Position numbers and translations under genes: made by a program | DNA from: a virus | Taxonomy: Duplodnaviria; Caudoviricetes | Strand: one strand, 5' to 3' | DNA length: 64,000 nt | Virus record (IMG/VR): IMGVR_UViG_3300037400_001903 | Coordinates: 1-64,000 of that record | Notes under the pieces: model-generated | The model's input: the letters and a program-made list of their open reading frames with translations, nothing else | The model's database searches: none | Told to the model about the DNA's origin: nothing | Shown here: one piece after another, positions 4,741-23,939 of the stretch | Position numbering within the stretch: the first letter of the stretch is position 1 | Layout: every line of letters starts with the position of its first letter

Positions 4741-4769
4741 ATTTTATCATAATTCAAAAATACTATCAA
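4741..4769 (-). promoter_or_regulatory. sigmaA-type promoter for portal-scaffold-capsid genes
   Basis: TTGATA-17 nt-TAAAAT with TGn extended -10 on the - strand. Confidence 0.6.
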
Positions 4770-6327
4770 CACTAATTGTGTATTCATCGGCTTCCTCTTC
4801 CTCTAATTTTCTCTCATCTTCATCTAATAATATCTGTAGATAACTTCTATTATCAACTGTTAATGATTCAAAGCCTAGAGGTTCTATGTCATCAGAGTAG
4901 AAAACAAGGAAGTGACCATAGGCATCAATAGCGTGGTCTTTACATTTAGAAGCAAGTTGTTCTGGATTATCATCATCATGAACAGCATTATTTAATTCTT
5001 CAATAAGATTTGTACATGCTGTAGATATTCTGAATTTGTAAACATCATCAGCATTTTTAAGAGTTGTTGCTGAGTGAATCTTATCATATCTCATCATAAC
5101 TTTACCTTTACCAGATTCTACTCCTACAGGGTTCAATCCATAGAATTCAAATACATCAGATTTAGTTTCACCTATAATCTTACCTGTATCATTTCTATAT
5201 CTATCACCACCACGGAACATATCATGTGGTAAACATGTGCAAGATATTTCAAAGTCTTCTGATTCTTTTGCAATCTCTTTTACGAAATCTTCAAATACTA
5301 ATTCCTGTCCATATAGTTCTTTGAATGTTATTACTCTATGGTCTGGGAATACTGCATGCCATAAGCAACAATAGTATGATGGTTTATAACCCCAGTCTAT
5401 TGATGCAAATATTTCCACATGACCAGATAGTTTTTGTAAATCTTCAGCTATAGCTTGAGGGGATAATAATTGTTCTGGTTTTAAATCGAAGTATCTACCA
5501 GCAACTACATCCCAGTTACCATACATATCCATTTGCTTTTGATGGTCTGATAATGATTCAAGGTTTGCAACATAAGAAGCATTAAGATAAGGGTTATCTT
5601 TAAATGATGCTGGTATGAAACGAATAAATCTCTTAATCCAGTGACCATCTCTTGGGTCTTGAACAAACTCAATGTGGTCTTTAGTTTGGATAGGTGTCTT
5701 GTGTTCGTCATACTTAACAACAGTTGTGTCAATGAATCTTTCCTTAACCCACTTATGTCCGATACCTCCTGGGTTACATCCAAATACAACTTTAGTTGGA
5801 ATATGTATAGGCTTACCTGTATATTTATTTAATACTGTAGCTGAACGTACGCAGGTTAATAGATAGTCAATAGTTCTCTTCTCTTGCTTTGTAACTTCAT
5901 CTATTGCAAGGTAGTGGAATTCCCATCCTTGCTTTGCTTTAGCTTCTTGATAGTTAGCAACACGTTGTAGTGTGATATAACTACCATTAGGGAAAACAAT
6001 AGAACGAGAAGGATACCATGAACTAGACTTTTCTTTATATTCATAAATAGTTATACCATTAACTACTGGTGGGAAAAGTGTTGGTAACTTATCTAGGAAT
6101 GATTGCTTAACAGCATCTAATGTTTCACGAAGTATACAACACTTTGCACCAGGATAAGTCTGACAGAACATAAAGGCATCAGCGAGGATGCCAGCAGATT
6201 TGCCAGCACCTCTCGCTCCACCATAGCAGATTATCCATATATCATCATAACTAACAGGAGCATTATGCAATAATATTTGTTTTGGAGTTGGCCTATAGTT
6301 AGGCGTTATTACCATAGTTTGTGCCAC
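4747..6327 (-). CDS. terL: Terminase large subunit
   Basis: Walker A GGARGAGKS, Walker B YLAIDE, coupling motif GCNPGG, nuclease SIDWG and DHAIDA; GTG start overlaps the giant gene stop by 1 nt. Confidence 0.93.
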   Translation of the reverse strand: MAQTMVITPNYRPTPKQILLHNAPVSYDDIWIICYGGARGAGKSAGILADAFMFCQTYPGAKCCILRETLDAVKQSFLDKLPTLFPPVVNGITIYEYKEKSSSWYPSRSIVFPNGSYITLQRVANYQEAKAKQGWEFHYLAIDEVTKQEKRTIDYLLTCVRSATVLNKYTGKPIHIPTKVVFGCNPGGIGHKWVKERFIDTTVVKYDEHKTPIQTKDHIEFVQDPRDGHWIKRFIRFIPASFKDNPYLNASYVANLESLSDHQKQMDMYGNWDVVAGRYFDLKPEQLLSPQAIAEDLQKLSGHVEIFASIDWGYKPSYYCCLWHAVFPDHRVITFKELYGQELVFEDFVKEIAKESEDFEISCTCLPHDMFRGGDRYRNDTGKIIGETKSDVFEFYGLNPVGVESGKGKVMMRYDKIHSATTLKNADDVYKFRISTACTNLIEELNNAVHDDDNPEQLASKCKDHAIDAYGHFLVFYSDDIEPLGFESLTVDNRSYLQILLDEDERKLEEEEADEYTISVDSIFEL

Positions 6328-9300
6328 TATTTATTACCTCCTTGGCTGAATGGATTGAAGCCTCTATCTCTTTTAACATAAGATGTACCATCTTTATAAT
6401 GTTGAGTTTCTGTTCCCCAAATATCCTTTGATGTTCCATAATCAACAGCATTACGCATGTTGCTATAAATATCTGAAGGAGTTGAAGAACTATTATAGTA
6501 TCTTCTATTTTTAGAATATGTATTTGTATTCCAGTTATTAACATTATTGTAATAATGGTTTCTATATGTAGGCTTGTAACTAGATGAAGAATATAATGTA
6601 GGATAATTGCGTTGATACTTATACAAAGAATTAACATTATTGTTTTTAAAGCTTCCTTCAATAGGCTTAGCCTCAGCTTGCTGATTAACTACGTCATAAT
6701 ATAATTCATCTAAGTTAGGGAAGATTCTATCTTCATACACTAAAGCAGATTTGATTGAATTATATTCTTTTTGTGATAATGAATTATAGAAATCAGTTTG
6801 ATTAGTAAGCTTTTGAATCTGAGTTCTAAGAGAAACAGCAGCTATTGCAGATTTAATTTCTTTTAGGCTAACATGATTATTAACAGCTTCTCTTATAATA
6901 TTATATATTGTTGTAGGAGATGCTTTAATATGCATAGCATTTCTTAGTTTAGATTTTAAACCATCATAATAATCTTTGTTAAACTCAGAATTTAGATTTG
7001 TATTATAAGTATCTTTATTATTTAAAGACTTATATTCGTATACAATATTTAAAGCTGTGTTGTAATTTTTCCAATCAGACTTAAATGATTTTGAGTTTCC
7101 TAATTCTTCACGGAATGCATTTTCAAATCCATGACCAAGAGTTTCCATGAAGTTATCATCATTATATTCATAAGTATTCATTGTATTCATAAATGCATTA
7201 GCACCTTTAGAACCCATTGAATATCCTAAAGCTTTTCTAGATAAATTATCAAAGAAGTTTTCCCCTTGATTACCATAAGGATTTGTGAAGTTATTCTTTG
7301 GTATTAAAGCATCAGGTATCATAGTGAATGCAGGATTCAATTTGTTCCAAACATTTTGATTGAAATAATTTCCTAAAGCTTCACCAAATATATCCATAGC
7401 TTTTGAAGAACTATCATCATCCTTATGATTCTTTATTGCATTGATTAAAGGATTAGCTACTAAATTCTTAACACCATAATATGGATTCCATACAGTAGAT
7501 GTATTCATTACTGTATCATCTAATAATATAGAACTAAATAGCTCTATTGATGCATCATCAGATAATATAGAATCAATCATTTCTTTCTTATCTTCTTCGT
7601 CATCATCCATTAACCAAACTGGCAACATTTGTAATAGAACCTGAGCTATAACTAATGTACCAATAGAACCAACTTGTCTTCCTAACCATTTTAGTGTAGA
7701 AGAATCTGCTGTACCTGTAAAGATTTCTTTTGCAGCGAACGCTCCAGACCTTATCTCGTTTCTAGCAAACCTTACTAAAGCTAATGGGAATGTTGTGAAG
7801 ATGAATCCATGTGCACTTAAATCACCAGCTACACCAGGCATATCACCGTATGTACCATAAGTATTTGATACAATCATAGCAGCTATTCTAGAAGATGCTT
7901 TTGTTCCAGCGTTTGTACCAGAAATATCATTCTTCATATTATCAGCAATCTTTTGAAGTTTGTCTTTTAAATAATATGAGTTACCTAGTCTGCTATAAAT
8001 AGATTCAATTTTGCCACCATTATCATCTAATGTTTGTTTTAAACTTAAATACATTGCATATCTATTTGCTAAATGTTGAGCAGTAAATTGTTTACCAATA
8101 AAGTTTAGATAAGGGTTTTTAGATTGTGTGTATCTTTCACCTAGAGATACTTTATTAGATAGAGGGTCAACACCTGTTATATCCATAAACTCTCTTAAAG
8201 ATTCTGCACAATACTTACCATTACTTTGAAGGTATGCACCTATCTCTTTTGTAACTTGAGGTAAATATTTAACTGTCTCAAAATTACCAGAAGCTATAGA
8301 ACTACTTAAATCAAACATTGAGAAGTTTAACATTCTAGTAGGGAACTTAACTGGATTAGCCATAACAAGTTTAATAACTAAGTTGCCTATAGTACTTGTT
8401 ATTTTCTTTAATAATGATGGTTCACGAGTATAGAATAACTTTTGAGTATGCTTTGCTACTGTTGCATCCATGAAATATAAGTCACCACGTAGAGCATCAA
8501 GTGCAACATTTTGTTCATATGTTCCTTCTAATCCACCTTCACCATGAGTTAATCTAAAGATATAATCATCTGTTGCATAAGGTGATAAAGCTTTGAATTG
8601 AGACAAGTCTTTGTTATACTCTCTACCAAATTGGTCTGTTATAACTAAGCCATGTTCTTCAGCATACTTTGTTATTGATTCATATATTCCATCAGTCAAT
8701 GTTGTTTTCTCACCACGTTCAATTTGTATTGTAGTAATTTTTCCTACTATGTCCATCATAACTGTATAAGCTTTTACAGCATTATCTAATGTAGTATCCT
8801 GAGGATTTGCCATTGATTGAGATAATAAATTATGGAATGTTATATCACCATAGGATTCTTTCAAAGGCTCTAAGTATCTCTTATATATTTCGTTATATAA
8901 AGAAGCATACTTCGCACAAGATGTTAGAGCTTCAGGGTCTAGTTTAATATTAGACATATTTAAAGTATCTTTAACTTGAACTATAAAATTATTCAAGCCA
9001 GCATTCTCTAAACTTTCAGCATCATCACTACCATATTTATTGAGTTCTTCTACAGATATTTTAGAGCTTATTGCACTACAAGTTTCATCAAATGCAAGAG
9101 TATTAGACATAGCTCCATTGCTCTTCATCTCTTCTCTATAATTTAATAATGCGTGGAAATTACCAACTTGAGATGCTGCACTAACTATATTAGTTAATGC
9201 ATCAAACTCTGTATAGCATCCTTCAGGGTCTAGGCCAGATGTAGCACCTTTTATAGAGAATGGATTGTTTGTATACTTAGCAGTACCTGCAAATATTAAA

Positions 9301-12300
9301 GAGGAATTTTTTACACGGTCTTCTTTTGAACTACCTGTAGCTTTTGTAGGTAAGAAGAATCTTGCTCTATTAGGACAAGTTTGACCTGTAGCATTACAAT
9401 AAGCTTGCATAGCACTATATATTCTATTACATACAATATTTAATTGTTCATCAATAGGAGCGAATATTTTTCTATAGCTCTCTATATGATTTGATATAGT
9501 AGATAAGTCACCTTTACTTGTAACATTAAGTTCTTTTAAAATATTATCTTTTACTTTTTGATAATATGCTGCAGTTTTTTCTTTCAACTTTGTTTCAAGT
9601 TTATTATTACAGAAGGCTAAAGATGACATTAAGTTTTTAAGTTTAATATATCTATTATAGGATTCTTTTAATTCGGTGTTAGCATTTATTTTTCCTGCAA
9701 CAGTAAGGAATTCTGAGCCAAGTAATTGATTTCTATAACTCTTAACATTAGCTCTGTAAGCTACTACAGTTCTATCTGTATCAGCTTCTTTTATTTTACT
9801 AGAGCTTAATATATCTGTATGGAACTCTGCAATATCTTTAGATGCTTTTAATCTTTCAATTTCTAAATCAAAACGTGTCTTATCGAAAGTAGAAGAAGCA
9901 CCTCTTGTCTCATCAACTACATTGCCAAGAAGATAATTTAAGTCATCCATATTTACTAGAGTAGATATATCTTCGGCTTCAGGCTTGTTAATTGATTTAA
10001 CTAAATTGTTTAGTTTGTCAATGTTTTCATTTGCTAAGTTGTCTTGAGCTTCTGTATCAGTTCCTTGATTATAGAATTCTCTTAGAGTATCACTATCACT
10101 AATAGATTTTCTTAACTGGTCAATTACAGGTTCAAACATTTCATGACGTTTATAACCATATAAACCACTCTTGCTTACATCAGCATATTCACCATAAGTT
10201 CCTATAAATGGTTTAGGGTTAGCAGTGAACACTAAGCCTTTATCATCATCTAATCCGAAATATCTAGGAGCAATATCTGATATGATTTGGTCTCTATTAG
10301 TTGTTAATCTTCTAACTCTTTCTAGTCTATTCTTAGCAGTAGATAAGTAAGCTTTTAAATTAGTATTTAATTTATCAGCCCAATAAGCTGTACCAGTACC
10401 GACTTTTTGAGGGTCATTATATCTAGTAGAGAAATATTTACCAGTAGAATCACCATGTATAAATTCCTGCTTAGAAGAATCATTATATAAATCATTACCA
10501 GCATTTTCTGTGAACATATATTGTAAGTCTCTTGTAAGATTTGGATATTGATTAATAAGTCTTTGCTCTGGTGTAATTCTATCTTGCGTTGCTGCTACAT
10601 CTCCTACTTTAGGGTCAGCGATACCAGCAATGCGTGCTGTCTTTTTCATATAAGGAACACAATCTACATAAGACTGAGTATTAAATGAATTAGACTGATT
10701 ACCAGATTTACCATTCATTAAGTTCAATACACCATTTAATGTATAATCATTTATATTATTTTTAAATTGGTATAGATATTTTTTATCAACACCTAAAGTT
10801 TCTGCAAGTTCTGCTACAAATTTTTCTAGTGGGTAGTAAGCTTCTGAGGCATCTGTATAATTATAGCCATCAACTTTCTTTCCACCAGATAATATGTTTT
10901 GGTCACCAAGTAGGAAACTTTCAGGTCTTGTATAGTAATAAAGTAATGTATTGTTCTTATGAATTTCTTTTGCTTTAGTTTTTGACTCAAGCTTTTTAGT
11001 ACCATCTAATTCCTCAGCATCTGTTGGTTTAAGTGCTGGAGACATATCAGGCAATTTATCTATCATATATCTTACATAAGGGTCTTTAGATGTATATAGT
11101 TGTTTAACTTCATCATCAGACATTTTATCAAAGATATAATATAAAATATTTGAACCTGTGTTTCCAGATGTTAAAGTTCCATCTAGCATGTTCTTAACTA
11201 AATCATTAACATTAGGTAGTTCTTCTTTAATTTTAGCACAGTGTTCATATAGAAGTTTAGCTAATAAAGTTCTATATACTCTTACACCATTAGTTGAACT
11301 AGCCCAAGGAGTATTAGCTTTATCTAATAATCTGCTAATCTCATTCTCGTTTTTAGAATCATAATAGAATTTATAAGAACCATCAGCTTGTTTAACTTTA
11401 CTATACCACTTGCCATGTAACTTTATTAATGTATCAGGGTTTGTCCTATCATTAACAAAACTTATTACATCCATTGGCTTAGATTTAGTATCCTGCTTAT
11501 AGAATGAATTTGCTTCTGGACAATAAGCTCTACATTTTAACTTAGTAAACTTAGCTTGAGTAGGGTCTTTAATCTCATTAAAGTCCTCATCATAGTATAT
11601 AATTTCATAAGTATCTCCTGCACCAGCACTAAGTTTCTTTAGGTCAAATATGTTACTTGCAGATAAGAAATCTATTGAGTTAAAGAATTGAGACATTTTT
11701 TTAACTTGTTCTTTAGTAAGATTATCATTATATAAAGAAGTATCTACACCAAGAAGCTGCATCTTTTCTAATAACATATAACGTTCTGCAAAGTCTTTGT
11801 CCTTATGAAGTGTTGCAAAGTCTTGAAGAAGTTTTTCTCTACTAGATTTTAATTGCTCTAATAAAGCTTTTCTTTCCTCAAAGAATCTTTTTGCAGATTT
11901 ACTTGCATATAGAGAACCACCAAGTATTAAAGCTATCTCCTTTTCAGCATTTAGAGCTTCGTCTATTGCATCGTTTATTTTAGGTTGGAATTCATTTGCT
12001 AAAGGCCTGTGAAGATTTCTTATCTCATTCTTTCTTCTGTCATCAGCATAATCAAATTCAATAGCTAATTCATCCCAAGTAGGTTTATTCATTGCTATTT
12101 GTTCTGCATCAAATTTTTTTCTTCTCTTAGCATATTCAGCTGTTGCCTCTGCTTGCTTAACTCTAGCTTCATGCCTTTTAGTATTCCATTCTTTAAGTTG
12201 CTGTAATTGCTCTTTTGAAAGAGATTTTAATACATCTTTTGAATTAATTATTGCTTGAATTTCAGGGTCATACTGCTTATATAACTCATCTAGTTTTTTA

Positions 12301-15300
12301 ATTATATCTATTAAATCATAATTATTATGGAAGTCTCTAGTTATATTTTTAGATATAGTACCTTTTTCTGCACCAGAATCTACTATACCAATCTTGTTAC
12401 CTAATAGACTATGTGTTTCCATTAGGTGAAGTGATTTAATATCTTCTGGATTAACTAATAAGTTACCATCTGTATCAAAGATATTATTTATGGCGTTACC
12501 TTGTTTTGTAAAGACACCAATTATTTGAACGCCTCTACCTATTTCAAAATCACCAATCTTTAGTTTATCATGATAAGGACTTCTAATTGCAGTTTGTAAA
12601 TTAGTTAAATCTTCTTTAGAAAGATTCTTAAATTCACAAGATGATGAACGTGAACTACAAGCTACATGCCTGTTACTTACTTGCTCAAAAGTATCTGAAG
12701 CAAGATTCTGAACAAGACCACCAGCTATTAATATCTCAGCATCAAAGTAATTCTTTGAGTCATGACCATCAATATATTTTATCTTAGATACATCTGTAGC
12801 CTCTGAAAGTTGAGCTCTAAGTTTTGTAATCATCTTTCTAGATAAAGCAGTGTTACCAGATGTTGCAGTAAATCTTCTTGATGATAGTGTCTCATCCAAG
12901 TCTGTAGCTAATTTATATTTATAATCAAGAATCTCTTTTAAAGACATATTATCTATATTAGATAAATCATCAAGTTTCTTATCTATATTAAGAGTAGGAT
13001 TATTATATCTAGCATACTCAGCTAATTGTTTTAATTTTTTAGCCTCGCCAGATTTATCTACATCATCTAATATATTAGGAATTAGATTCTCATTAAAGAA
13101 TTTTTTAAATTCTTCACTACCTCTATATAATAACTCAGCACCTCTATATGCATCTATTATTACACGTACACCTTCATCAGTATCTTGTACAGATTGGAAA
13201 GCTATACCTAAGAATTCTTTTATACTAGAAGCTATTTCATCACCAAATGATTTTTGTATTGATGATATTGTCTTAGCTATAACAGCATCTTTAGCAACAC
13301 CTAAAGCTGTCTTTAGTCTAGCTCTAGTGTCTTTACTTAAATTAAACTGATTATAAGTAAACAATTCTGTAGCATCTTTAGTTTCTACATAACGCCCATC
13401 TAATAAATCTTTAAATTTTTTAGAAGCGAAACCTGTTGCTGAATCTTTGTATGATAATATTTCATCAATTAAGAACTTAGTATCAAGAGCAAGTCTTCTT
13501 ATAATTTCATCTGATTGTCTTTCACCTATAGCATATTCTGAATAATAAAGGTCACCATCTTTAAAGTCACTAGCTTTAAGTGTTGGATACTTTGAAGCAT
13601 CTTCTTTTTTGATAACTTTAATGTAAGAAGTTTTATCATCTAATTTAGCATCATTCATATATAAAGCTTTTGCTTTTAATTCATTATCATTTAAAGAATC
13701 ACCATTACGTAATTTTTCAAGTAGTTTTGCTATTGTTACACCAGTACTATTCTCTATTTCTTTTATAACATTAAACTCATTAACTGGGTCATAAGTAGAA
13801 TCATATAACATGTTTATTAAATCATCAGCTGCATCCCAAGTTTTATCAGTAGATTTCATTAAAGAATTACCATATTTTTGTAGAGATGCGTCTGGTTTAA
13901 TTAGCATTACTTTATCTGAGTCAAAGTCTCCACTATGATAAGCCATGAATATATCTGGAGCTAAGATAATATCGTTATAAGTATTATCAACTATTCTAAC
14001 TCTATAAGTGTGAACTATATTCTGACCTACTCCTGGAACTCTATATAGTGAAATATAAACATAATCTGTTGGGCCTAAGCCTAAAGATTCTTTATAAGAT
14101 TCTATAGAAGCTCCACCGAATAATTGTTCAAATCTATGTCTAGTTATGCCAATATCAGTAGACTTTAGTTGATACTGTGTGCCGTCTTCTAAAGTTATAT
14201 TTCTTCCAGGGATTATACCTGAAGCCATTACCCAATTTGTAGGAATATCTACAGATTCAGAGAATGTAGACATAGCATCATCTAATGCATCAAAGTAGAA
14301 GTTCTTTAGAATTCTTGGACCTTTATACTCTATGACAAATTCATTAGTACCAGGCTTATACGCATTTTCGAAGTCACCTGTCTTTAATCCTGTCATTAAA
14401 TCGAATAATAGATTCTTTGTATCATCATCTATATTTTTTAATTCAGCAGCTTTGAAAATCTTATCATAAACTTTTGATACAACAAAAGATTGATAATCTT
14501 TTTCAAGTCTTCTCTTTTCTGATTCAAAGCTTTCCTTAGAAACAGAATCATCTATAAAGTTAATGAAGCTTGTCTCATCATAAGTATTAACAGGTTTCCT
14601 GTCTTTGTATTTAGTATTAAGTAGATATTCTATTTCGTTGATAGGCATCTTTAAGAAATCTTCTTGAGTGAAGTTATCATTCTCTTTTAGTTGCTGCTTC
14701 TCTTTTCTGATTGAATTAATCATGTCATTCATTAACTCAACGCCTGTTTTAAACTTATCTTCTGTTAATTCAGTACCATCATTATTTATGAATAATAATA
14801 CTTTATCTCTAACTGCATTTAAGTTTGATGAGCCATCATCATTAACATGTAATAACCAATTTAAGAAATCAGATTGATATTCAAATATTAATTCATGTTC
14901 AAGATTGTAATCTTTCTTATAAAGATATTGAATTTCATCTGAATTTATTACAGCGTTTCTCTGAGTTACTAATTCATTAAGAAGCTTATCAGTCATAGAT
15001 GTACCATATTTAGAATATAATTCTCTATAATCTTTAGCATCTTTATCTAAAGCATCTAATTTCCAAATATCATCAAATGATTTTAATGAACCGTCTTCTT
15101 GCTTAATAGATGTTAATAACTTAAACAATTCAGTTTTATCTATATCATTAGCATCAAGACTTTTAAGTAAGCTATCTATATCTTTATATAGTGAGGCTTT
15201 AATTTTCTCAACATCTACCAAGTTATTCATTTCATATAAGAAATACTTGTAGGAGAAAATAGCATCATCCATAGCTAAGTGTGATGTAGATTCATCACCT

Positions 15301-18300
15301 AACTGTCTTCTTAAATTTGCTAGAGATACAGAAGCTTTATTAATATCTGCATTAGGTGTTATAACTTTTGCAATATCTTCTTGTGTATCAATATGTTCAA
15401 CAGCATCAGCTAATTTTCCGATTGAACCAAATTGCTTTTCTATTTTCTTGATATCTGTAGCTCTAGAGTTATGTCCAAGAAGTACAAACTCTTTAAGACC
15501 TAATTGAGATAAAGCATGGCTAATAGCTTCATCTATAGCTTTTAGTACTTCAGTATTTGCATCAGAACTATTTATAGAGAAGATGTATTCATTATTATGT
15601 TTTGTTTTAGTCCTTGTATTATATTTTAAACTGTCTTCATAATTCCTGTAAGCTGAAGCTGCATCCTTATCTGTAGAAGCTAGAGTTTCATAACCAGCTA
15701 TTTCACTATCATCATATTTAATTAAGATTCTATATCTAAGAATATCTTCATCTTTAGTTACAGATAAATCTTTAGAACCTTTAGCTACTGCGAAAGATAT
15801 CTCATAAATTTTATCCTCTAGATTTTTACCGAAATAATTTTCAAGGTCGAAATTTACTATAGCTTTACCATCTATAAGCTCAGCAACATTTATTGTTTTT
15901 GCTACACTACCATCATCATTATGAAGGTCAATCATACCTTCTTGAAGAGAAGTTCTAGCGTAATTCTCTTGAAGTTTATTTAAGTAATCTTCATTTCCTA
16001 ATAAGAAGAATTGTAAATCTTTACCTCTATTACCTGATAATATTTTATATTGGATAATATTAGCAACTGCTTGTTTTCTTTCTTCTGGGTCAGATATATT
16101 TGAAACAACTCTTTTCAAATCTAAAGCATGTAATTCACCATCTTCAGAATCTAAATTATCAATAGCTTTAGTAACATTTATATCATCACTTAAATTATCT
16201 AAGGATTCTTTAAGAACATCAGTAATGCTATTCTTGAAATCGAGAATGCTTGATGGAACAGAACTCTCATTTATAAAGTAAGTGAAAGCATCTATAGTAT
16301 CAGCAACCATTTTGTTTGCTTTCTTTTGAAGAGCATCATATTCTTTGCTAGTTAATGTACCTTTCTTTAAATCTATATGAGATAAAGCTTGGTCTTTCAA
16401 ACTTAAGAAATCTGCAGCAGAATGTAAATTCTCTACTGTCTCTAATGTAGAATGAAGCAATCTATCTACAGCGTAGTTTAAAGATTCAACCATAGCTTCT
16501 TTAGTAGCATCAGGCATATTAGCAAATGTTTTAGATACCTCATCCATTATTAGTGTTTTAGAATTCTGCATATATAATGTTCTGATTTCTGAACGAGTCA
16601 TATATGAACCAAGTTGTTTAGCAACTATATCTGCAGCACTATCTGATATAACATCAAAGTCTAATTCATTGTTTCTTTCAAAATAATCTGCAATACAATT
16701 TCTGTAAATCATATTTCTTAAATAAGAAACATTACCAGACTTTTTATCTAGAGACATTATCTTTATATTCTCACCATAAGAAGAAGCATTTAAAGACATG
16801 ACATTCTTAGAGGCATTAAATAAGAAAGCCTTCTTGTAATTTAATTTCTCATCTAATATACCTTTTAAGAATAATTGACGACCTAATGATATAGCTTCTC
16901 TACGACCATAGATATTATCACCAACATTATCTATATGCCATACATCATTCTCATCTTGATAAGCGATAGTATATCTATTATATGAAGAAGACATATCTGT
17001 ACCTGTAGTATTGAAATAAATCTTCAAAGCTAATTCCATAGCTGTCTTTGAATCTATATCTACAAGCGAGTTATCTTTTAATATAGTTCCTGGTATAGAT
17101 TTAGCTAAAGAAGCAATACTTGTAAGCATCTCGCCTAATGCTAGTTTATTTTCCATGTTAGCTACATACACAGAACCTGGATGGTCAACAGTTGGTGTAG
17201 TATAAATATTTAACATTTCTGATAATAATTTAGAGGTTTCACCATTTAATGTTGCAGCAGAAAGTTTCTTGAAGAAAGTATCTTGTTCTTTCTTATACTT
17301 AAGTCTTTCACTTCTAAATAATATTTCATTAGCGAACTCTTCCATAGCATCATTCTTAATAAATGCTTGGCCTGCAGCATTGATTTGTGTAGTTTCTGTT
17401 CCTCTAGAATAAGTAACTCTTTGAGCAGAATAATCACGAACAAGGTCATTTATTGAGCCTTTAATATTAGTTAAATCATTCATTTGGAAAGGGTTAAACA
17501 TAACTTTTTTATCATGCATAACATATAAGCTACCACTAAATTCTTTACCATTTATATCCCAAACTATTTTAATAGAGTTTGCTGTCTCTACATATATGGT
17601 TTTTATTGTTGCAGTACCATTGTTTAAACTTACTAATAGCTTTAATAAACTTTCATCAGGTCTAGATATTGGTGTAATTAATATTTTATCAGGTAGTTTC
17701 GTACCAGTATAGTGCTCAAAAGAATCACCACAATAATCTACTATATCTTTATCAGCTATTTTTAAATCATCTAATGTTATATAAGAATATTCCTTTAAGC
17801 CTTTAGTAGAAACATTAATAGCATTAATTGCATCTTTAGACACTACATAATTTTCTTTTGTTATATCTTTAAAGCTATTATTTTCATACTTATCAATTAA
17901 AGATAACTTCTCTTTTAATTGAGGTGTTACCATTCCAAGCTTTTCTAATGCATCAAATTGTTCTCTAGTAAGAACTCTTATATCATCAATACTAATGAAG
18001 GCTTTACCTGTAGATGAATCATATCTAATCATAGAAGCAATATCTGCATAAGGATTATCTTTTTGTAAAATGAATATGTCATCCCTAGAGTTATAAGTTG
18101 CAGGTGTAAGCATCTTTAATAGACCAACTATTTTCTTAACTGTTTCTGCATTATAACCAGAATCTAAAGCAATCTTAGTATAGTCAAGTTTATCAACTAT
18201 AGCCTTGCCATCATAATCAATACCAAAGTTTCTGTATTCACCCATGTTTTTCTCAACAGCCTCAGCTATTTTATTTAATTGGTCTTTATCAAATACTATA

Positions 18301-21300
18301 TCTATTTCTTCTTTAGTGAATCCTCTTGAGGCTAAAGCATCTATAGTCCTTTGGTTCTCTGATTTTAAATAAGACTTTATAATACTCTCAAGATTTTTTG
18401 TTATATCCTCTTCAGATGAATAACCTTTAATATTTAAAGAAGTATTACTAATGAAAGATTTGAAATCTTCTATAGTATCAAATCTATCAAAGTTCTGACC
18501 TTTAAGGAAATCTAAGAAGTTTGCACCACCAGCACTTAGTCCTTCAACTTTAATAGTATCAAAATTATAAGTTTGTTCTGGTAGCTGAGCAATTTCTAAT
18601 TCATTAGGTAATACAAACATACTTCTTAAATTTATATTACCATTCTTATCAGAGAAATTTTTAATTATATAAGGTAATGTCCAATTATCTGCTTTAACAT
18701 TTGTTATTACAACCTTATGCATTTTACCAGGTAAATCTTCATTAATGAATTCATATAATGAAGAAGTCTTTTTTGTGAAGTTTTTATATTCCTCATCTGA
18801 CATTGTGACTGAGTATAATGAAGTATCACTCTCAGTTTTAACATAAGCATTAGCTGCTTTTATTAAATATAATAATGTTATAGCATTACCAAATGCACCA
18901 TCATCATTCATGTCAGAGAATAATTGTTTATAAGAATAACTATTAAAATATTTTCTACTAGTTTCATTATCTATCTTAGATGCAGCTTTACCTAACTTTA
19001 ACATACAAGTTATAATTTCTTTAGCAGCATCTAAAGATATAGCATCTTTAGTTAAAGTAATACTAAACATTTTATTAATAGCATCTAAGTTTAAAGAATC
19101 AATATCAGCATCAGATACTAATACACCATATCTATCCTTAACAGCAAGTTTAACATCTAGCTTCTCTTTATTATTTAAAAAGACTAGAGAGTTATCATCT
19201 GTAATAATTCTTGAAAGTTGCATTAGTTTATTATAATTTTCTAGAGTTAAATTAAATTCTAAACCTCTTGAAGAATCTGATGTGAAACTAATTCCAGGTT
19301 TATCTAAACTTCTACCTGATTCTAACATAGAATTTACTTCTACTTCAGAATAACCTATAGAATACATCATGTTCTTAAAATCATTTAACTCAGCTGTATT
19401 GTTTCTATCAAATGTTAGAACACTTGTTTCATTATCTGTTTGCAATCTACATAAAGCTCTAAGAGTATCTATGTTTCTAGCATTGCCTAATTTCTTTTCT
19501 AGGTTAGCTATTATAGTTTTACTACCAACAGATAATGCTTCTTTAGAACTTTCAACCTCTAATTCACGGACTAAATTATGAAATTCTTTTGTTTCTAATT
19601 GAGATAAGTTAACAATTATTAAATCTTTTTTGTTATAACGAACAGTATCTTTTAAAAGCTTGCCGTATGTAATTAAAGAATTAATTAGTTCATCCTTAAG
19701 TAGATTAGCATCTATATCTTCTGAACGTAAAGCTAAGAAGGTATCAACGAAATCAGTTATTTCCTTTTCGTTTGTTAAATAATCGTCTAAGTCTAGATTT
19801 CTTAGAGTTTGGCCCAAAGATGTTTGTAAAGGATTTTCTTTTACTAGCTCCAACTGACCTTCTGTAAAAGCTATCAAGCCCTCAAGTCCACTGAAGAAAT
19901 CATTTCCAACTAATTTGTCTTTAATCAATAACTGTTGAACTTCTTTATCTTCTAATACTTTCTTGATAGCACTGTCGAGATTTTTAAGGTCAGTTGAAGA
20001 AACGTCATTGCTATCGCCAGATTTTTTAGCAGCTTGAAGTTTTCCAGAAAGTTCTTTGATTTCACCAGTAGTTTTATAATACTCTAAGTATTTCTTTGTA
20101 TTAGATACAGCTTCGTCATTTCCTGTTGTGTCTATCTCATCATAAGAAATTCCTAGCTTATCAAATATATTTATAAGTTGTATTCTACTTATTGCATCTA
20201 TTTTAGAAGAAGCAAGTGTACATAAATATGTAGCAATTAATTTTCTAGCTCCTTCTTTATATTCTGCAGAATCTAAGAAATGAGTGTTCTCACTGTTATT
20301 GAAAGCAGCAACACCATTTTCTATATTAGCTTTGATTGTTTCAAAATCTTTTAAATAAGCCTTAGCAGTTTTACCTTGACAAATTTGAAGATTATTTCTT
20401 ACGAATATATCTATTAATAAGTCACAACCAGATTTAATCTTGTCTGCTTCTTTAGTCATGTTTAAGCAGAATAAAGCTCTCAATGCTGTAGCTATTGAGT
20501 CTGCTTGTTTTAATTGACCAAAGATTGTATTTTCAAAACAGCCAACTTGTACATATATAGTTTGCACTTTACCTGTTTTATCTAGATACTGCACTTCATT
20601 GAATAATCCTGCAATAGCTAAAGCTCTCATAGCATTATCAAAATTAGGGTTTAACATATCTTGTAAGTAATCATTATGATAAGCCTCATTCATTTTGAAA
20701 ACATTGGAATCATTTAATAAAGTTCTTGCAGCTGCTTCATTAGGTTCAATACCTAAGATTTCTCCAGCAACTTTTTGGAAGTCTTTGTTTATAACTAAGT
20801 CTTCATATTCTGGAACCAATTTACCGTTAGAATCATTAGCTATATGGTCTATTATTACATACTTATCAAAAGAGTCTGAGAACTCTGAACTATTAACATT
20901 ATTATAATCATCAGGTCTAGCTTCTGAATAGAAGTTCATCTCTTTAAGAATAGACTCATCTAGTGATGCTTTCAATCCTGCCATACTTAGTACATCATTT
21001 AACTGTTGATGTAAAGAAATTTTACCACCCTTCTTATCATCAACTGTTTTAATATGAATATGTTTTTGATAAGAAGCATCATCAAAGTTTTCGCCCACAG
21101 ATTTAAAAGTATTGTTGATAGCATCATATTGTTCTTTAGTCAAAGTAAGAACTTTATCTGGGGTATCTAATTTAATACCGACAGAACTTAATACAGATTT
21201 AATTCTTTCGTTTGACATAACAAAGTCTTTATCTATTGTATAAGTAGTTATAGTTGTATTAGTTCCTTGGAATTCTTTAGCATTAGATTCAAACTCATTC

Positions 21301-23939
21301 TTAGCTCTTTCGTAAGCTTGTCTAATACTAAACTCACCTTTTAATACAGAGATATTAGTATTATAAAGAGTGTTGTACATCTTTTGATACATCATTAAAT
21401 CATAAGAATTTCTTGCTATAATTTTTTCCACAGCTGATTCTTTGATATTAGCTAAAACTATAGCTCTGATACCACCAGCAGATTTTTCGTCTTTAGTTAA
21501 TCTAGATAAAGTTTTTTCATCTATTCCTAATACATCAGTAGAAACATCTGTTGATACTTCACATAGGAATGTTAAAGCTTTTATTGTAGCAGAAATTTCT
21601 GATTCACCTTTATCTCCAACACGAAGAGCCATAGCTGGTTCTATAATATTAGTTAATATTTTTTGAGCAGCTTCTGGATTCTTCTCAACCATAGAAGCAT
21701 AACGCCCTCTTATTGTATTAATAGCTGTATCATAAGTTTTACTTAAGTTATCTACAGATGTAATTGCTGCTCTAATATATTCGTCATCATCTAGGTGAGG
21801 GCCAATTAACTTACCTTCATCAGTTCTTCCGAAGAACTTGAATCCCATATCTTGCTTAGCAATATATAAGTTTGTAAGAATAAATTGTGGGTTTAAAGTT
21901 ATATTCTTCATGTTCTCCCAGAAGTTACCATCTTTACTAGATAATGTAGCAGTAGTAGTTTGAGTTACAATATTTTCTATTATATCTGCAACTGTATCAA
22001 TAGATTTAGTGTAAACTGATTTACCTATACTTCTTAAAGATTCAACACCAATTTGGTTTACAAAATTATTTAAAGTTTCATTAGATACTTTGCTACTTAA
22101 ATCACTAATCTTATCTTGAATAGCTTTTTCATAAGCACCTCTTTGTCTAAAGAAAGATGTAACACCACTATCTCCAACAGCTCTTAGTGCAAATGATGTA
22201 AGAGTATTAATACCTATATTAGCTAAACCTCTACCAATAATCTCGCCTTCTGATAATTTTTCATCCTCACTAAGCATTTGATTTTGTATTGAAAGTTTAG
22301 TCATTGTTGAGACACCATCACGTAATGCAAGTGTAGCAGCTGTTACAAATCTATTAGCCATAGCATGTTCAGCAAGCTTAGGTACAATAGAAGTAACGCT
22401 ACCTCCTCTTAATCCTGAGTAGGTACGAGTAGCAAATGCTGCACCTTTTAATACTGCTGTTCCAGCTTGAGCAAATCCTTTAGAAACACCACTTGCCATA
22501 TTTGCAGTAGCATTTGCAGCTGTTTTAGCTGCATTATTTATAGCTCCAGTTAATCCTGCAGAAGCAATCATACCAACGATTGTACCTGTAGCATTAAGTA
22601 TTCCTCTAGCCCAGTCGTCACCTTCGCCCCATTGGAATCCTTGGAAGTCTTTTGTATTAACACCACCAAAAAGAATGTTGTTATTTTTAAAAGCATTCCA
22701 ATCTAACATTATATCATCATTACCACACCAGTGTCCTACTAATCCTACAACTTGTGCACCGAAATCAAATAGGCTTGTGAATACAGAGAAGAATGAACCA
22801 AGGAAAGAATCAACAGCTTCTTGGAAAGCACCGTTACCTAGCCAACCATGAGTTGTTACTCTATCAACAACTTTGTTTCCATCCTTATCTGTTTCATAAT
22901 AAATCTTACATGTATTGTTACCAGTACCTGATGAACCTTCAGCTGCATAAAGCTTACCATCAGTACTATAGTAATAATCGTAAGTACCATCATTATCTAT
23001 ATCAATGAATGGGTTAAACATATTTATGTCAACGAATCCACCTCTATATAATTTAATAAATTGTTCTTCTGATTCAAAGTAACTTGAGATTGCTGCGAAC
23101 TGGTCAGCAAATAGAGTCTTAATATCTTCAGCAGTTACTTCTCCACCTGAAGCCCATACTACTGCATTCTCTTTTAGTCTATTTAAAGAAGCAGCTTCGT
23201 ACCAAGATTCAGCTTGAAATTTTTCTTCAGCCATAGAAAGAACATCAGACAAGAATGTTGATGAGTTTAAAGGATTTGAATAATCACCTTTCTTAGCTTT
23301 GTTATACCAATATAAAGAAGAATCAAAGTCATAGCCTTGAGCTTTAAGAATATCTTTACCATAAGCTTTGTATAAGAAATCAGCATATCCAATGTTACCT
23401 GCTTTATATTCAGCATGTAACTTTTTTACTTTCTCTTCAGCTAGTAAAAGCTTTGCTGTTGTTTCAAAACCTTTTGGAACGAAACCTGTTTTATTATAGT
23501 ACTCTGTAAAAGATTCTCTATCAGATAAACCACAAGCTCTCTTTAAATCAGTATACTTTGTAGTACCTAATGAGTCCCTATATAAAGCTTCAACTGAATC
23601 ATCCAATGGTTCTCCAGTAGGAACGTAAGATTCTACAGAACCTTCAGGTGCATAGGTTGTACCTTTATCTCCACCTAATATAGTTGAAATATCTGAAGAA
23701 GAATATTCATCTAGGTTAGGTCGTATGACTCCTGTACTTGCATTTAAAAAACCATCTTGCTGTGCCTTTTGCTCGTTGTCATCCAACTTAATGTCGAACT
23801 TATTTGAGCCAGTACTAGGAGATGGCGTTAAAAGAGTATCGTCAATTTCTTTATTAGAACCTGCGATATCGTCATTAACATTTTGAGTTAATTCATTAAA
23901 AATATTATTGTTCTTATAATCTGTGTTTTGTCCTTGCAT
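6327..23939 (-). CDS. Giant (5,870 aa) probable virion protein containing a two-barrel RNA polymerase core and a DEDDh 3'-5' exonuclease
   Basis: beta'-like barrel LKSTDIGITRHRFEQLF...LYRVP...IILAPDIFMAYHSGDFDSDKVML (D3338/3340/3342); beta-like GNK(3849)...GAEK(3859)GTISK; DEDDh FDLE / GHNSRATD / HLAMDDA; hydrophobic N- and C-terminal regions. Placed in the head operon. Confidence 0.8.
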   Translation of the reverse strand: MQGQNTDYKNNNIFNELTQNVNDDIAGSNKEIDDTLLTPSPSTGSNKFDIKLDDNEQKAQQDGFLNASTGVIRPNLDEYSSSDISTILGGDKGTTYAPEGSVESYVPTGEPLDDSVEALYRDSLGTTKYTDLKRACGLSDRESFTEYYNKTGFVPKGFETTAKLLLAEEKVKKLHAEYKAGNIGYADFLYKAYGKDILKAQGYDFDSSLYWYNKAKKGDYSNPLNSSTFLSDVLSMAEEKFQAESWYEAASLNRLKENAVVWASGGEVTAEDIKTLFADQFAAISSYFESEEQFIKLYRGGFVDINMFNPFIDIDNDGTYDYYYSTDGKLYAAEGSSGTGNNTCKIYYETDKDGNKVVDRVTTHGWLGNGAFQEAVDSFLGSFFSVFTSLFDFGAQVVGLVGHWCGNDDIMLDWNAFKNNNILFGGVNTKDFQGFQWGEGDDWARGILNATGTIVGMIASAGLTGAINNAAKTAANATANMASGVSKGFAQAGTAVLKGAAFATRTYSGLRGGSVTSIVPKLAEHAMANRFVTAATLALRDGVSTMTKLSIQNQMLSEDEKLSEGEIIGRGLANIGINTLTSFALRAVGDSGVTSFFRQRGAYEKAIQDKISDLSSKVSNETLNNFVNQIGVESLRSIGKSVYTKSIDTVADIIENIVTQTTTATLSSKDGNFWENMKNITLNPQFILTNLYIAKQDMGFKFFGRTDEGKLIGPHLDDDEYIRAAITSVDNLSKTYDTAINTIRGRYASMVEKNPEAAQKILTNIIEPAMALRVGDKGESEISATIKALTFLCEVSTDVSTDVLGIDEKTLSRLTKDEKSAGGIRAIVLANIKESAVEKIIARNSYDLMMYQKMYNTLYNTNISVLKGEFSIRQAYERAKNEFESNAKEFQGTNTTITTYTIDKDFVMSNERIKSVLSSVGIKLDTPDKVLTLTKEQYDAINNTFKSVGENFDDASYQKHIHIKTVDDKKGGKISLHQQLNDVLSMAGLKASLDESILKEMNFYSEARPDDYNNVNSSEFSDSFDKYVIIDHIANDSNGKLVPEYEDLVINKDFQKVAGEILGIEPNEAAARTLLNDSNVFKMNEAYHNDYLQDMLNPNFDNAMRALAIAGLFNEVQYLDKTGKVQTIYVQVGCFENTIFGQLKQADSIATALRALFCLNMTKEADKIKSGCDLLIDIFVRNNLQICQGKTAKAYLKDFETIKANIENGVAAFNNSENTHFLDSAEYKEGARKLIATYLCTLASSKIDAISRIQLINIFDKLGISYDEIDTTGNDEAVSNTKKYLEYYKTTGEIKELSGKLQAAKKSGDSNDVSSTDLKNLDSAIKKVLEDKEVQQLLIKDKLVGNDFFSGLEGLIAFTEGQLELVKENPLQTSLGQTLRNLDLDDYLTNEKEITDFVDTFLALRSEDIDANLLKDELINSLITYGKLLKDTVRYNKKDLIIVNLSQLETKEFHNLVRELEVESSKEALSVGSKTIIANLEKKLGNARNIDTLRALCRLQTDNETSVLTFDRNNTAELNDFKNMMYSIGYSEVEVNSMLESGRSLDKPGISFTSDSSRGLEFNLTLENYNKLMQLSRIITDDNSLVFLNNKEKLDVKLAVKDRYGVLVSDADIDSLNLDAINKMFSITLTKDAISLDAAKEIITCMLKLGKAASKIDNETSRKYFNSYSYKQLFSDMNDDGAFGNAITLLYLIKAANAYVKTESDTSLYSVTMSDEEYKNFTKKTSSLYEFINEDLPGKMHKVVITNVKADNWTLPYIIKNFSDKNGNINLRSMFVLPNELEIAQLPEQTYNFDTIKVEGLSAGGANFLDFLKGQNFDRFDTIEDFKSFISNTSLNIKGYSSEEDITKNLESIIKSYLKSENQRTIDALASRGFTKEEIDIVFDKDQLNKIAEAVEKNMGEYRNFGIDYDGKAIVDKLDYTKIALDSGYNAETVKKIVGLLKMLTPATYNSRDDIFILQKDNPYADIASMIRYDSSTGKAFISIDDIRVLTREQFDALEKLGMVTPQLKEKLSLIDKYENNSFKDITKENYVVSKDAINAINVSTKGLKEYSYITLDDLKIADKDIVDYCGDSFEHYTGTKLPDKILITPISRPDESLLKLLVSLNNGTATIKTIYVETANSIKIVWDINGKEFSGSLYVMHDKKVMFNPFQMNDLTNIKGSINDLVRDYSAQRVTYSRGTETTQINAAGQAFIKNDAMEEFANEILFRSERLKYKKEQDTFFKKLSAATLNGETSKLLSEMLNIYTTPTVDHPGSVYVANMENKLALGEMLTSIASLAKSIPGTILKDNSLVDIDSKTAMELALKIYFNTTGTDMSSSYNRYTIAYQDENDVWHIDNVGDNIYGRREAISLGRQLFLKGILDEKLNYKKAFLFNASKNVMSLNASSYGENIKIMSLDKKSGNVSYLRNMIYRNCIADYFERNNELDFDVISDSAADIVAKQLGSYMTRSEIRTLYMQNSKTLIMDEVSKTFANMPDATKEAMVESLNYAVDRLLHSTLETVENLHSAADFLSLKDQALSHIDLKKGTLTSKEYDALQKKANKMVADTIDAFTYFINESSVPSSILDFKNSITDVLKESLDNLSDDINVTKAIDNLDSEDGELHALDLKRVVSNISDPEERKQAVANIIQYKILSGNRGKDLQFFLLGNEDYLNKLQENYARTSLQEGMIDLHNDDGSVAKTINVAELIDGKAIVNFDLENYFGKNLEDKIYEISFAVAKGSKDLSVTKDEDILRYRILIKYDDSEIAGYETLASTDKDAASAYRNYEDSLKYNTRTKTKHNNEYIFSINSSDANTEVLKAIDEAISHALSQLGLKEFVLLGHNSRATDIKKIEKQFGSIGKLADAVEHIDTQEDIAKVITPNADINKASVSLANLRRQLGDESTSHLAMDDAIFSYKYFLYEMNNLVDVEKIKASLYKDIDSLLKSLDANDIDKTELFKLLTSIKQEDGSLKSFDDIWKLDALDKDAKDYRELYSKYGTSMTDKLLNELVTQRNAVINSDEIQYLYKKDYNLEHELIFEYQSDFLNWLLHVNDDGSSNLNAVRDKVLLFINNDGTELTEDKFKTGVELMNDMINSIRKEKQQLKENDNFTQEDFLKMPINEIEYLLNTKYKDRKPVNTYDETSFINFIDDSVSKESFESEKRRLEKDYQSFVVSKVYDKIFKAAELKNIDDDTKNLLFDLMTGLKTGDFENAYKPGTNEFVIEYKGPRILKNFYFDALDDAMSTFSESVDIPTNWVMASGIIPGRNITLEDGTQYQLKSTDIGITRHRFEQLFGGASIESYKESLGLGPTDYVYISLYRVPGVGQNIVHTYRVRIVDNTYNDIILAPDIFMAYHSGDFDSDKVMLIKPDASLQKYGNSLMKSTDKTWDAADDLINMLYDSTYDPVNEFNVIKEIENSTGVTIAKLLEKLRNGDSLNDNELKAKALYMNDAKLDDKTSYIKVIKKEDASKYPTLKASDFKDGDLYYSEYAIGERQSDEIIRRLALDTKFLIDEILSYKDSATGFASKKFKDLLDGRYVETKDATELFTYNQFNLSKDTRARLKTALGVAKDAVIAKTISSIQKSFGDEIASSIKEFLGIAFQSVQDTDEGVRVIIDAYRGAELLYRGSEEFKKFFNENLIPNILDDVDKSGEAKKLKQLAEYARYNNPTLNIDKKLDDLSNIDNMSLKEILDYKYKLATDLDETLSSRRFTATSGNTALSRKMITKLRAQLSEATDVSKIKYIDGHDSKNYFDAEILIAGGLVQNLASDTFEQVSNRHVACSSRSSSCEFKNLSKEDLTNLQTAIRSPYHDKLKIGDFEIGRGVQIIGVFTKQGNAINNIFDTDGNLLVNPEDIKSLHLMETHSLLGNKIGIVDSGAEKGTISKNITRDFHNNYDLIDIIKKLDELYKQYDPEIQAIINSKDVLKSLSKEQLQQLKEWNTKRHEARVKQAEATAEYAKRRKKFDAEQIAMNKPTWDELAIEFDYADDRRKNEIRNLHRPLANEFQPKINDAIDEALNAEKEIALILGGSLYASKSAKRFFEERKALLEQLKSSREKLLQDFATLHKDKDFAERYMLLEKMQLLGVDTSLYNDNLTKEQVKKMSQFFNSIDFLSASNIFDLKKLSAGAGDTYEIIYYDEDFNEIKDPTQAKFTKLKCRAYCPEANSFYKQDTKSKPMDVISFVNDRTNPDTLIKLHGKWYSKVKQADGSYKFYYDSKNENEISRLLDKANTPWASSTNGVRVYRTLLAKLLYEHCAKIKEELPNVNDLVKNMLDGTLTSGNTGSNILYYIFDKMSDDEVKQLYTSKDPYVRYMIDKLPDMSPALKPTDAEELDGTKKLESKTKAKEIHKNNTLLYYYTRPESFLLGDQNILSGGKKVDGYNYTDASEAYYPLEKFVAELAETLGVDKKYLYQFKNNINDYTLNGVLNLMNGKSGNQSNSFNTQSYVDCVPYMKKTARIAGIADPKVGDVAATQDRITPEQRLINQYPNLTRDLQYMFTENAGNDLYNDSSKQEFIHGDSTGKYFSTRYNDPQKVGTGTAYWADKLNTNLKAYLSTAKNRLERVRRLTTNRDQIISDIAPRYFGLDDDKGLVFTANPKPFIGTYGEYADVSKSGLYGYKRHEMFEPVIDQLRKSISDSDTLREFYNQGTDTEAQDNLANENIDKLNNLVKSINKPEAEDISTLVNMDDLNYLLGNVVDETRGASSTFDKTRFDLEIERLKASKDIAEFHTDILSSSKIKEADTDRTVVAYRANVKSYRNQLLGSEFLTVAGKINANTELKESYNRYIKLKNLMSSLAFCNNKLETKLKEKTAAYYQKVKDNILKELNVTSKGDLSTISNHIESYRKIFAPIDEQLNIVCNRIYSAMQAYCNATGQTCPNRARFFLPTKATGSSKEDRVKNSSLIFAGTAKYTNNPFSIKGATSGLDPEGCYTEFDALTNIVSAASQVGNFHALLNYREEMKSNGAMSNTLAFDETCSAISSKISVEELNKYGSDDAESLENAGLNNFIVQVKDTLNMSNIKLDPEALTSCAKYASLYNEIYKRYLEPLKESYGDITFHNLLSQSMANPQDTTLDNAVKAYTVMMDIVGKITTIQIERGEKTTLTDGIYESITKYAEEHGLVITDQFGREYNKDLSQFKALSPYATDDYIFRLTHGEGGLEGTYEQNVALDALRGDLYFMDATVAKHTQKLFYTREPSLLKKITSTIGNLVIKLVMANPVKFPTRMLNFSMFDLSSSIASGNFETVKYLPQVTKEIGAYLQSNGKYCAESLREFMDITGVDPLSNKVSLGERYTQSKNPYLNFIGKQFTAQHLANRYAMYLSLKQTLDDNGGKIESIYSRLGNSYYLKDKLQKIADNMKNDISGTNAGTKASSRIAAMIVSNTYGTYGDMPGVAGDLSAHGFIFTTFPLALVRFARNEIRSGAFAAKEIFTGTADSSTLKWLGRQVGSIGTLVIAQVLLQMLPVWLMDDDEEDKKEMIDSILSDDASIELFSSILLDDTVMNTSTVWNPYYGVKNLVANPLINAIKNHKDDDSSSKAMDIFGEALGNYFNQNVWNKLNPAFTMIPDALIPKNNFTNPYGNQGENFFDNLSRKALGYSMGSKGANAFMNTMNTYEYNDDNFMETLGHGFENAFREELGNSKSFKSDWKNYNTALNIVYEYKSLNNKDTYNTNLNSEFNKDYYDGLKSKLRNAMHIKASPTTIYNIIREAVNNHVSLKEIKSAIAAVSLRTQIQKLTNQTDFYNSLSQKEYNSIKSALVYEDRIFPNLDELYYDVVNQQAEAKPIEGSFKNNNVNSLYKYQRNYPTLYSSSSYKPTYRNHYYNNVNNWNTNTYSKNRRYYNSSSTPSDIYSNMRNAVDYGTSKDIWGTETQHYKDGTSYVKRDRGFNPFSQGGNK

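Follow-up and report, generated by a model that had tools for sequence, protein, structure and literature searches.

The DNA analysed here, called the window, is taken from a tailed phage (Caudoviricetes) and comprises positions 1 to 64,000 of the IMG/VR record IMGVR_UViG_3300037400_001903, which is 77 kb long and has a completeness of ~71% as estimated by CheckV. It carries on the minus strand a giant open reading frame (ORF) at 6327..23939, which runs uninterrupted over 5,870 codons and has a Shine-Dalgarno sequence (GAGAGGGG) upstream of its ATG. Directly downstream on the same strand follows the gene of the terminase large subunit, terL (4747..6327; PHROG 979, E 7e-35), after which the gene order continues with the portal and the major head protein. 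An original prediction, made by eye, had placed a two-barrel RNA polymerase (RNAP) inside the giant protein of this head operon. Both the ORF and its terL neighbour are present as claimed, and all six peptides quoted at the time were found at their residues, within 12348-14168 of the window. The giant protein of the window is P0001 and its homologues are P0002 to P0004; residue numbers refer to P0001, and all its parts are encoded on the minus strand. Sequence comparison establishes that residues 3245-3352 of this protein are homologous to barrel A, the catalytic Asp barrel of two-barrel RNAPs, and in particular to that of the virion RNA polymerases (vRNAPs) of crAss-like phages.

Homologues of P0001 were sought with two word-indexed searches that covered 5.8 billion clusters and with phmmer, run once and exhaustively against 1.84 billion representatives. 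These searches returned three relatives only, without any shorter or split form, and the family counts four members among ~15 billion predicted proteins. P0002 (5,917 aa) is 87% and P0003 (5,771 aa) 49% identical to P0001. The DNA of P0003 was recovered as L002, the one locus that a metagenome scan returned. P0004 (5,448 aa), a singleton from ENA, is distant, with ~25% identity in the barrel segment. Scans of IMG/VR with the window's own segment gave no match, nor did tblastn of residues 3100-4000, the N-terminus and the C-terminus against 50,697 phage records, while the protein atlas returned unnamed viral clusters. Over the whole protein the identity between P0001 and P0003 averages 47% by position. 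P0004 can be aligned with the others in four islands: residues 52-693, ~2184-2325, 3215-3420 and the C-terminal third. The island at 2184-2325 looks helical and does not qualify as a barrel candidate.

The barrel-A-like segment, a double-psi segment of beta-prime type at residues ~3245-3352 (13884..14207), was detected with hhalign, HMMER and BLAST. It contains the R-x-P motif of barrel A (R3300-V-P3302, 14034..14042), which corresponds to R446/P448 of Rpb1 and R962/P964 of QDE-1 (PMC2919709), and D3338-F-D3340-S-D3342 (13914..13928), the predicted Mg2+-binding triad. At the triad P0001 and P0002 have DFDSD, whereas P0003 shows the canonical DFDGD and P0004 has DVDGD. R-x-P and D-x-D-x-D are invariant throughout the family at identities as low as 25%. 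The same aspartates are kept in the crAss vRNAPs. In an alignment of 16 sequences, made of the four family proteins and 12 crAss-like loci from IMG/VR, invariance is confined to the columns of one Pro, of the Arg and Pro of R-x-P (16/16) and of the three Asp. Two-barrel RNAPs share eight invariant residues overall (PMC2919709), and the five R-x-P and Asp positions found here are 5/8 of these. The spacing agrees as well: In this family, as in all crAss sequences, the first Asp follows the Tyr of YR[IV]P at a distance of 39 residues. When the count begins with the Arg of R-x-P, the first Asp comes 39th in the family, in crAss vRNAPs and in gp96 of the Thermus phage P23-45, and 36th in E. coli beta-prime. 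The bare D-x-D-x-D pattern occurs three times in the protein, which is not above chance.

For comparison we retrieved gp66 of phage phi14:2 (locus tag Phi14:2_gp077; 2,180 aa, DFDID at 1361; PDB 6VR4) together with six annotated crAss-like homologues. Aligning the four-member family to seven crAss sequences with hhalign gave P 1.6e-3, and to a 19-sequence crAss vRNAP core P 8.9e-5 at a probability of 60%. With a hidden Markov model of the crAss core, hmmsearch obtained a domain E of 1.1e-5 at residues 3299-3441. We also scanned the whole protein in 600-residue windows against four targets, namely the crAss core, a beta profile, RpoB and RpoC (~80 comparisons). The top match by far was that of residues 3279-3352 to the crAss barrel (P 3.3e-5, probability 72%). 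In pairwise BLAST, gp66 1321-1438 aligned with residues 3299-3419 of P0001, and gp66 aligned with P0002 as well. Cellular enzymes matched more weakly: The barrel of P0003 hit positions 100-153 of the Pfam profile RNA_pol_Rpb1_2 at E 0.053, below the cut-off, and hhalign to E. coli RpoC 446-520 gave P 0.006. The barrel is moreover a local conservation peak, with 61% identity between P0001 and P0003 vs 47% overall. The predicted beta-prime-type barrel is thus borne out at the sequence level by an intact motif set and by profile statistics, and the triad, claimed as catalytic, is kept in all four proteins. The closest known relative of the catalytic module is, by these profile matches, the crAss-like vRNAP represented by gp66.

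About 350 aa upstream of the catalytic barrel lies a DEDDh (RNase T/DnaQ-like) 3'-5' exonuclease-like domain (residues ~2695-2899, 15243..15857). Residues ~2783-2899 matched Pfam PF00929 (RNase_T) with E 1.9e-4 and 22.4 bits, at a cut-off of 24. The motifs tested were D-x-E (Exo I), N-x(2-3)-D (Exo II) and H-x4-D (Exo III); D2698, E2700, H2823, D2829, H2887 and D2892 are invariant in P0001-P0003. In P0004 the exonuclease island was not detected. A possible role of the fused domain is the trimming of nucleic acid ends.

If the enzyme is active, a Lys barrel (barrel B) and a bridge helix must exist as well. The best candidates for these lie downstream of barrel A, at 3481-3531 and 3729-3864. The candidate bridge helix (residues 3485-3514, 13398..13487; LALDTKFLIDEILSYKDSATGFASKKFKDLLD) coincides with the sharpest local conservation peak, 3481-3531, in which P0001 and P0003 are 69% identical and which includes DSATGFASKKFKDLLD. 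It is found 160 residues past the triad, vs +168-198 in gp66. Its comparison with the E. coli beta-prime bridge helix by hhalign yielded P 0.77, and Pfam found no match in the region. The bridge helix that had been proposed at 3499-3514 is a likeness by eye without statistical support. An alternative candidate (residues 3572-3610, 13110..13226; SSIKEFLGIAFQ...AELLYRG) is the place where greedy hhalign puts the crAss bridge helix, pairing AELLYRG with FMLIRAG at P 0.23.

The candidate Lys barrel spans residues 3729-3864 (12348..12755). By eye, four motifs in it, NYFDAEILIAGGLVQ, ACSSR, GDFEIGR and GNKIG..SGAEKGTISK, follow each other in the order of beta/Rpb2. A small beta/alpha sub-domain (residues 3765-3841, 12417..12647) is its sole confidently folded part. 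Against a beta profile built from gammaproteobacterial sequences, hhalign gave P 0.07 with three family sequences. With four sequences P was 0.0057 at 3732-3802 (beta 812-886), as one of the ~80 comparisons, and the whole-protein scan contained one further beta-profile match with P < 0.02, at 3903-3948 (P 0.0086). PF00562 matched neither the genome nor the segments, the beta profile in HMMER hit the coiled-coil insertion only and not the barrel, and a regular-expression scan for barrel-B strings of crAss or beta type gave nothing decisive. The beta barrel of the original prediction thus lacks statistical support. Known barrel B invariants are D837, K979 and K987 in Rpb2 and D709, R738 and K743 in QDE-1 (PMC2919709). 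The two lysines whose conservation had been named as a check, K3849 and K3859, are invariant in the three close homologues P0001-P0003; to P0004 hhalign found no similarity in this region and no significant alignment at these positions. Opposite the invariant beta Asp, the alignment has Ala3734 in P0001 and Pro in P0003, and the identity of the region to P0003 (43%) is under the protein average. The protein atlas returned C-domains of Eco57I-type methyltransferases for the candidate; with few shared features this is probably a chance match, and we discarded it.

In the single-chain enzymes QDE-1, gp66 and P23-45 gp96 and gp64 the chain runs from barrel B through the connector to barrel A and the bridge helix; in gp66 the connector is found at 1095-1238, the bridge helix at 1529-1559 and the trigger loop at 1598-1636 (bioRxiv 10.1101/2020.03.07.982082). 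A barrel B and a connector could fit into the ~345 residues that separate the exonuclease-like domain from barrel A. This upstream region is, however, the least conserved one and cannot be aligned with P0004, such that barrel B may lie either here or downstream. A reversed order of the barrels is possible but unproven.

The two ends of the giant protein are kept in all four homologues. An N-terminal module (residues 52-693, 21861..23786) matched P0004 with a BLAST E of 2e-62 and a C-terminal module (residues 5055-5782, 6594..8777) with 1e-68. A hydropathy scan revealed hydrophobic segments in both, at 383-401 (window ~22737-22793) and 447-467 (~22539-22601) in the former and at 5426-5444 (~7608-7664) in the latter. 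These possibly membrane-inserting segments thus sit in the best-conserved parts of the family, which fits a protein that engages membranes during ejection.

At the junction of the giant ORF with terL (6325..6343, minus strand) the sequence AAGGAGG is followed by TAGTG. The giant ORF ends with CAA GGA GGT AAT AAA TAG, and the GTG start of terL shares the G of this stop codon (1-nt overlap), such that the AAGGAGG of terL falls within the final codons of the giant gene. In L002 the P0003 gene directly precedes a 526-aa terL with the same layout, AGGAGG and then TAATG (18085-18099). As a side observation, the conserved C-terminus ...GGNK* of the giant protein encodes the Shine-Dalgarno sequence of terL in both phages. 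Regarding the translational coupling to terL that had been suggested, its physical basis is confirmed, and the coupling itself would be a plausible consequence of this arrangement.

The hallmark genes of the genome give no indication of a crAss-like phage. Among the matches listed, the nearest phage relatives of terL were Roseobacter CRP, Pelagibacter HTVC103P/104P and Bacillus PK1 phages and not Crassvirales; the portal matched weakly to Arthrobacter phages only (8 records), the major capsid protein (MCP) gave no match, and the PolA matches listed were assorted phages, none of them Crassvirales. In the same collection the gp66 relatives listed by organism were 141 crAss-like or Bacteroidota-infecting phages. 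Judged from its hallmark genes (terL, portal, MCP, PolA) the phage is not crAss-like. It further encodes a DnaG-type primase, SNF2 and D5-type helicases, Sak4, an exonuclease, a GroEL-like chaperonin (41072-42613, minus strand; Pfam Cpn60_TCP1, E 8e-35), a type of gene that is also annotated in phi14:2, and two adjacent radical-SAM-domain proteins (57193-58167 and 58176-59132, minus strand; PHROG 13987) that adjoin a putative tail/virion gene at 60589-63822. With PF00562 and PF00623 no other RNAP was found in the 77-kb record. PF00940, the profile for T7-type RNAPs, also had no match there, a weak negative given that the control of this search matched nowhere. One bovine gut DNA run (n=1) contains the stretch and may be its origin, and goat gut runs were listed with small shares of it; among the sequencing runs listed, there was no RNA run containing it.

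A divergent intergenic hub of the window contains three perfect 6-bp hairpins, at 28381-28399 (-), 29395-29413 (-) and 29929-29947 (+). Their stems differ (CCTGGG/CCCAGG, GACGAG/CTCGTC and GCTGGC/GCCAGC), and their loop, GTAAACG, is identical. This heptamer has only three copies in the window, all of them in the hub, and the first hairpin is located ~20 nt upstream of the Shine-Dalgarno sequence and ATG of the first leftward gene. The vRNAP of coliphage N4 uses hairpin promoters. Gp66 prefers single-stranded templates (bioRxiv 10.1101/2020.03.07.982082). Speculatively, the hairpins may be considered candidate promoters or regulatory sites for a putative virion polymerase.

We favour the reading that P0001 contains a very divergent single-chain two-barrel RNAP, probably virion-borne, within a giant ejection-type protein, and assign to it a probability of roughly 65%. 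The barrel segment is conserved across the four members while most of the remaining protein has diverged past recognition. We count for a virion RNAP that the gene immediately precedes those of terL, portal and MCP, its stop codon overlapping the start of terL, and that the profile searches found no other RNAP in the 77-kb record. For gp66 it has been shown experimentally that the protein is packaged and is an RNAP that depends on Mg and on the Asp residues (bioRxiv 10.1101/2020.03.07.982082). By analogy, the giant protein would be made with the co-transcribed head proteins, be packaged into the capsid and be ejected with the genome, with the hydrophobic segments of its terminal modules aiding the crossing of the envelope. 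The central two-barrel core would then polymerise RNA on the phage DNA and transcribe the first genes without the host RNAP, as do gp66, N4 gp50 and P23-45 gp96; for gp66 and gp96 this has been demonstrated by experiment.

Several results weigh against this reading. From the sequence only one barrel is detectable, and neither barrel B nor the connector, the bridge helix or the trigger loop of the crAss, E. coli and P23-45 enzymes gave a significant match. The region 2900-3240, which is the site of barrel B in solved single-chain enzymes, is the least conserved part of the protein (37%). Structure prediction, which had been suggested as a check, did not help: Two AlphaFold2 runs gave models of low confidence (mean predicted local distance difference test scores of 44 and 51) with strands in 3247-3329 and no double-psi barrel at usable confidence, and fold searches with these models returned no polymerase above noise. 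Searches of the giant protein in three pieces against Pfam and PHROGs had no relevant match, and phmmer and a two-sequence profile produced chance matches only among the PDB sequences, without retrieving gp66/6VR4. With only four members the conservation statistics are thin, and given the incomplete record another RNAP could lie outside of it.

The candidate regions downstream of barrel A could be read as a permuted architecture, in which the Asp barrel is followed by a cellular-type bridge helix (3485-3514) and, ~400 residues on, by a beta-like Lys barrel (3729-3864), with the DEDDh exonuclease upstream. This is the full model of the original prediction, and we regard it as doubtful. It would account for the four beta/Rpb2-like motifs in their proper order, for the better of the two beta-profile matches with P < 0.02 falling on 3732-3802, for the invariant K3849 and K3859 and for the 69% peak at 3481-3531, which we take to resemble GLIDTAVKTAETGYIQRRL of Rpb1. 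P0004 has, by eye, ATKVTVAGSAIAKSTIQE in collinear position, where the K-x9-K-x-T-I spacing recurs, and the poor conservation of the upstream region, where barrel B usually resides, points in the same direction. None of the matches is significant, however (P 0.07, 0.0057 in ~80 comparisons, 0.77 for the bridge helix), neither PF00562 nor HMMER recovers the beta barrel, and hhalign sees nothing between the candidate region and P0004. In addition, the Ala or Pro in place of the barrel-B Asp, the unrelated methyltransferase domains from the atlas, the below-average identity to P0003 and the uniform barrel B, connector, barrel A order of QDE-1, gp66 and P23-45 gp96 and gp64 all speak against it. 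The wider proposal, that this rare phage lineage of the ruminant gut carries such a circularly re-ordered core with a DEDDh fusion inside the largest polymerase-bearing virion protein known, we consider unlikely. If true, it would imply that injected two-barrel transcriptases also arose independently outside the crAss lineage, possibly with the GTAAACG-loop hairpins as promoters.

The protein might also be a purely structural internal or ejection protein, in which the barrel is a dead relic or a chance look-alike without polymerase activity. Most of the protein indeed has no recognisable enzyme domain, and its conserved termini contain hydrophobic segments as is typical for ejection proteins. 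Only one barrel is detectable, and no structure prediction favours a polymerase. What renders this improbable is that all five catalytic positions of barrel A are kept among homologues of ~25% identity while the flanks have no detectable similarity, which fits selection on the active site. The profile match (P ~3e-5) and the HMMER domain (E 1e-5) furthermore fall exactly on the segment that bears the motifs. A two-barrel polymerase of other specificity, either a PolD-like DNA polymerase with an exonuclease proofreader or an RNA-templated or primer-making enzyme, appears very improbable. The exonuclease-like domain close to the barrel would suit such an enzyme, and the two-barrel superfamily takes in PolD and RNA-dependent RNA polymerases (RdRPs) of QDE-1 type (PMC2919709); in the protein atlas an RdRP family came out as the nearest named cluster, though its score of 0.80 is low. 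Yet the phage already has its own PolA including an exonuclease domain, besides a DnaG-type primase and a D5-type primase-helicase. Moreover, DNA-dependent virion RNAPs are the nearest relatives that can be detected, and no exonuclease island is detectable in P0004.

With a divergent virion RNAP as the preferred reading, the crAss vRNAPs are the natural reference, being the sole significant sequence match. They share with the protein described here YR[IV]P, the 39-residue spacing and DFDxDK. In both cases the polymerase is found within a very large, otherwise unrecognisable protein whose gene lies among structural genes, and phi14:2 and this phage both encode GroEL. Similarity to the crAss enzymes is, however, confined to ~110 residues, with no second match of P < 0.02 to the crAss core in 5,870 aa. 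The gene directly precedes terL here instead of lying in a tail/cargo block, the exonuclease-like domain is extra, and position four of the motif holds S or G where the crAss enzymes have I or V. Furthermore, the four-member family stands against hundreds of crAss vRNAPs, and terL, portal, MCP and PolA of this phage find no Crassvirales. In the crAss-like IMG/VR contigs themselves we observed that the vRNAP frame is in several cases cut into short ORFs (code 11) around DFDID (L028, L032, L035-L041, L044, L047, L048, L051, L052 and L054). Split genes would be in line with this, as would the reassignment of a stop codon that has been reported for some lineages of crAss-like phages.

Gp96 of P23-45 is a tape-measure-fused virion RNAP that is delivered with the DNA (bioRxiv 10.1101/2022.12.01.518664). 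It likewise represents a polymerase of two-barrel type fused into a giant virion protein of ~5,000 aa, and its spacing from R-x-P to DFDGD is identical. Its polymerase is N-terminal (327-1124), with the rest forming the tape measure in a tail module, whereas the barrel of P0001 is central and encoded in a head operon. Using the single gp96 sequence, hhalign found no detectable similarity.

The cellular pairs RpoC/RpoB and Rpb1/Rpb2 have in common with the family the R-x-P and (A)AY..DFDGD motifs and the weak matches to RNA_pol_Rpb1_2 (E 0.053, P0003) and RpoC 446-520 (P 0.006). The beta-like and bridge-helix-like motifs downstream are a likeness to RpoC/RpoB by eye only. Differences are that the matches remain below all curated thresholds, that Rpb2_6 is not matched, that the protein is a single chain and that its distance from R-x-P to the triad is longer by three residues. 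Were the beta-like region real, beta-prime would precede beta.

Coliphage N4 provides a further parallel. Its gp50 (~3,500 aa) is packaged in the capsid, injected and transcribes early genes from hairpin promoters; it has a T7-like right-hand polymerase fold that is unrelated to the two-barrel enzymes. The three hairpins with identical loops in the divergent early hub are a possible likeness to this system. As a difference, PF00940 has no match here, with the stated limit of a control that matched nowhere.

Regarding size, the original prediction had considered the protein far larger than known ones, which was overstated. Annotated giant fused crAss forms of the Suoliviridae reach 4,946 aa (cr118_1), 4,774 aa (cr50_1) and 4,551 aa (cr55_1), and the tape-measure RNAP gp96 has 5,002 aa, such that 5,870 aa is only an incremental record. 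New is rather a family of four members in which only ~110 residues are recognisable, in a lineage without crAss affinity, together with the fused exonuclease-like domain and a core that is possibly rearranged. So far injected two-barrel RNAPs have been tied to crAss-like phages and the Thermus phage P23-45. Here the same catalytic barrel occurs in a phage with non-crAss packaging, capsid and replication genes. If active, the protein would show that early transcription by virion polymerases, independent of the host, is more widespread than known, and would represent a naturally occurring fusion in which polymerase, exonuclease and ejection modules are combined. The superfamily, which is used for reasoning on the origin of transcription, would also gain a very distant sequence. 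More generally, giant 'hypothetical' phage proteins can hide enzymes that are missed by Pfam, PHROGs and PDB sequence searches.

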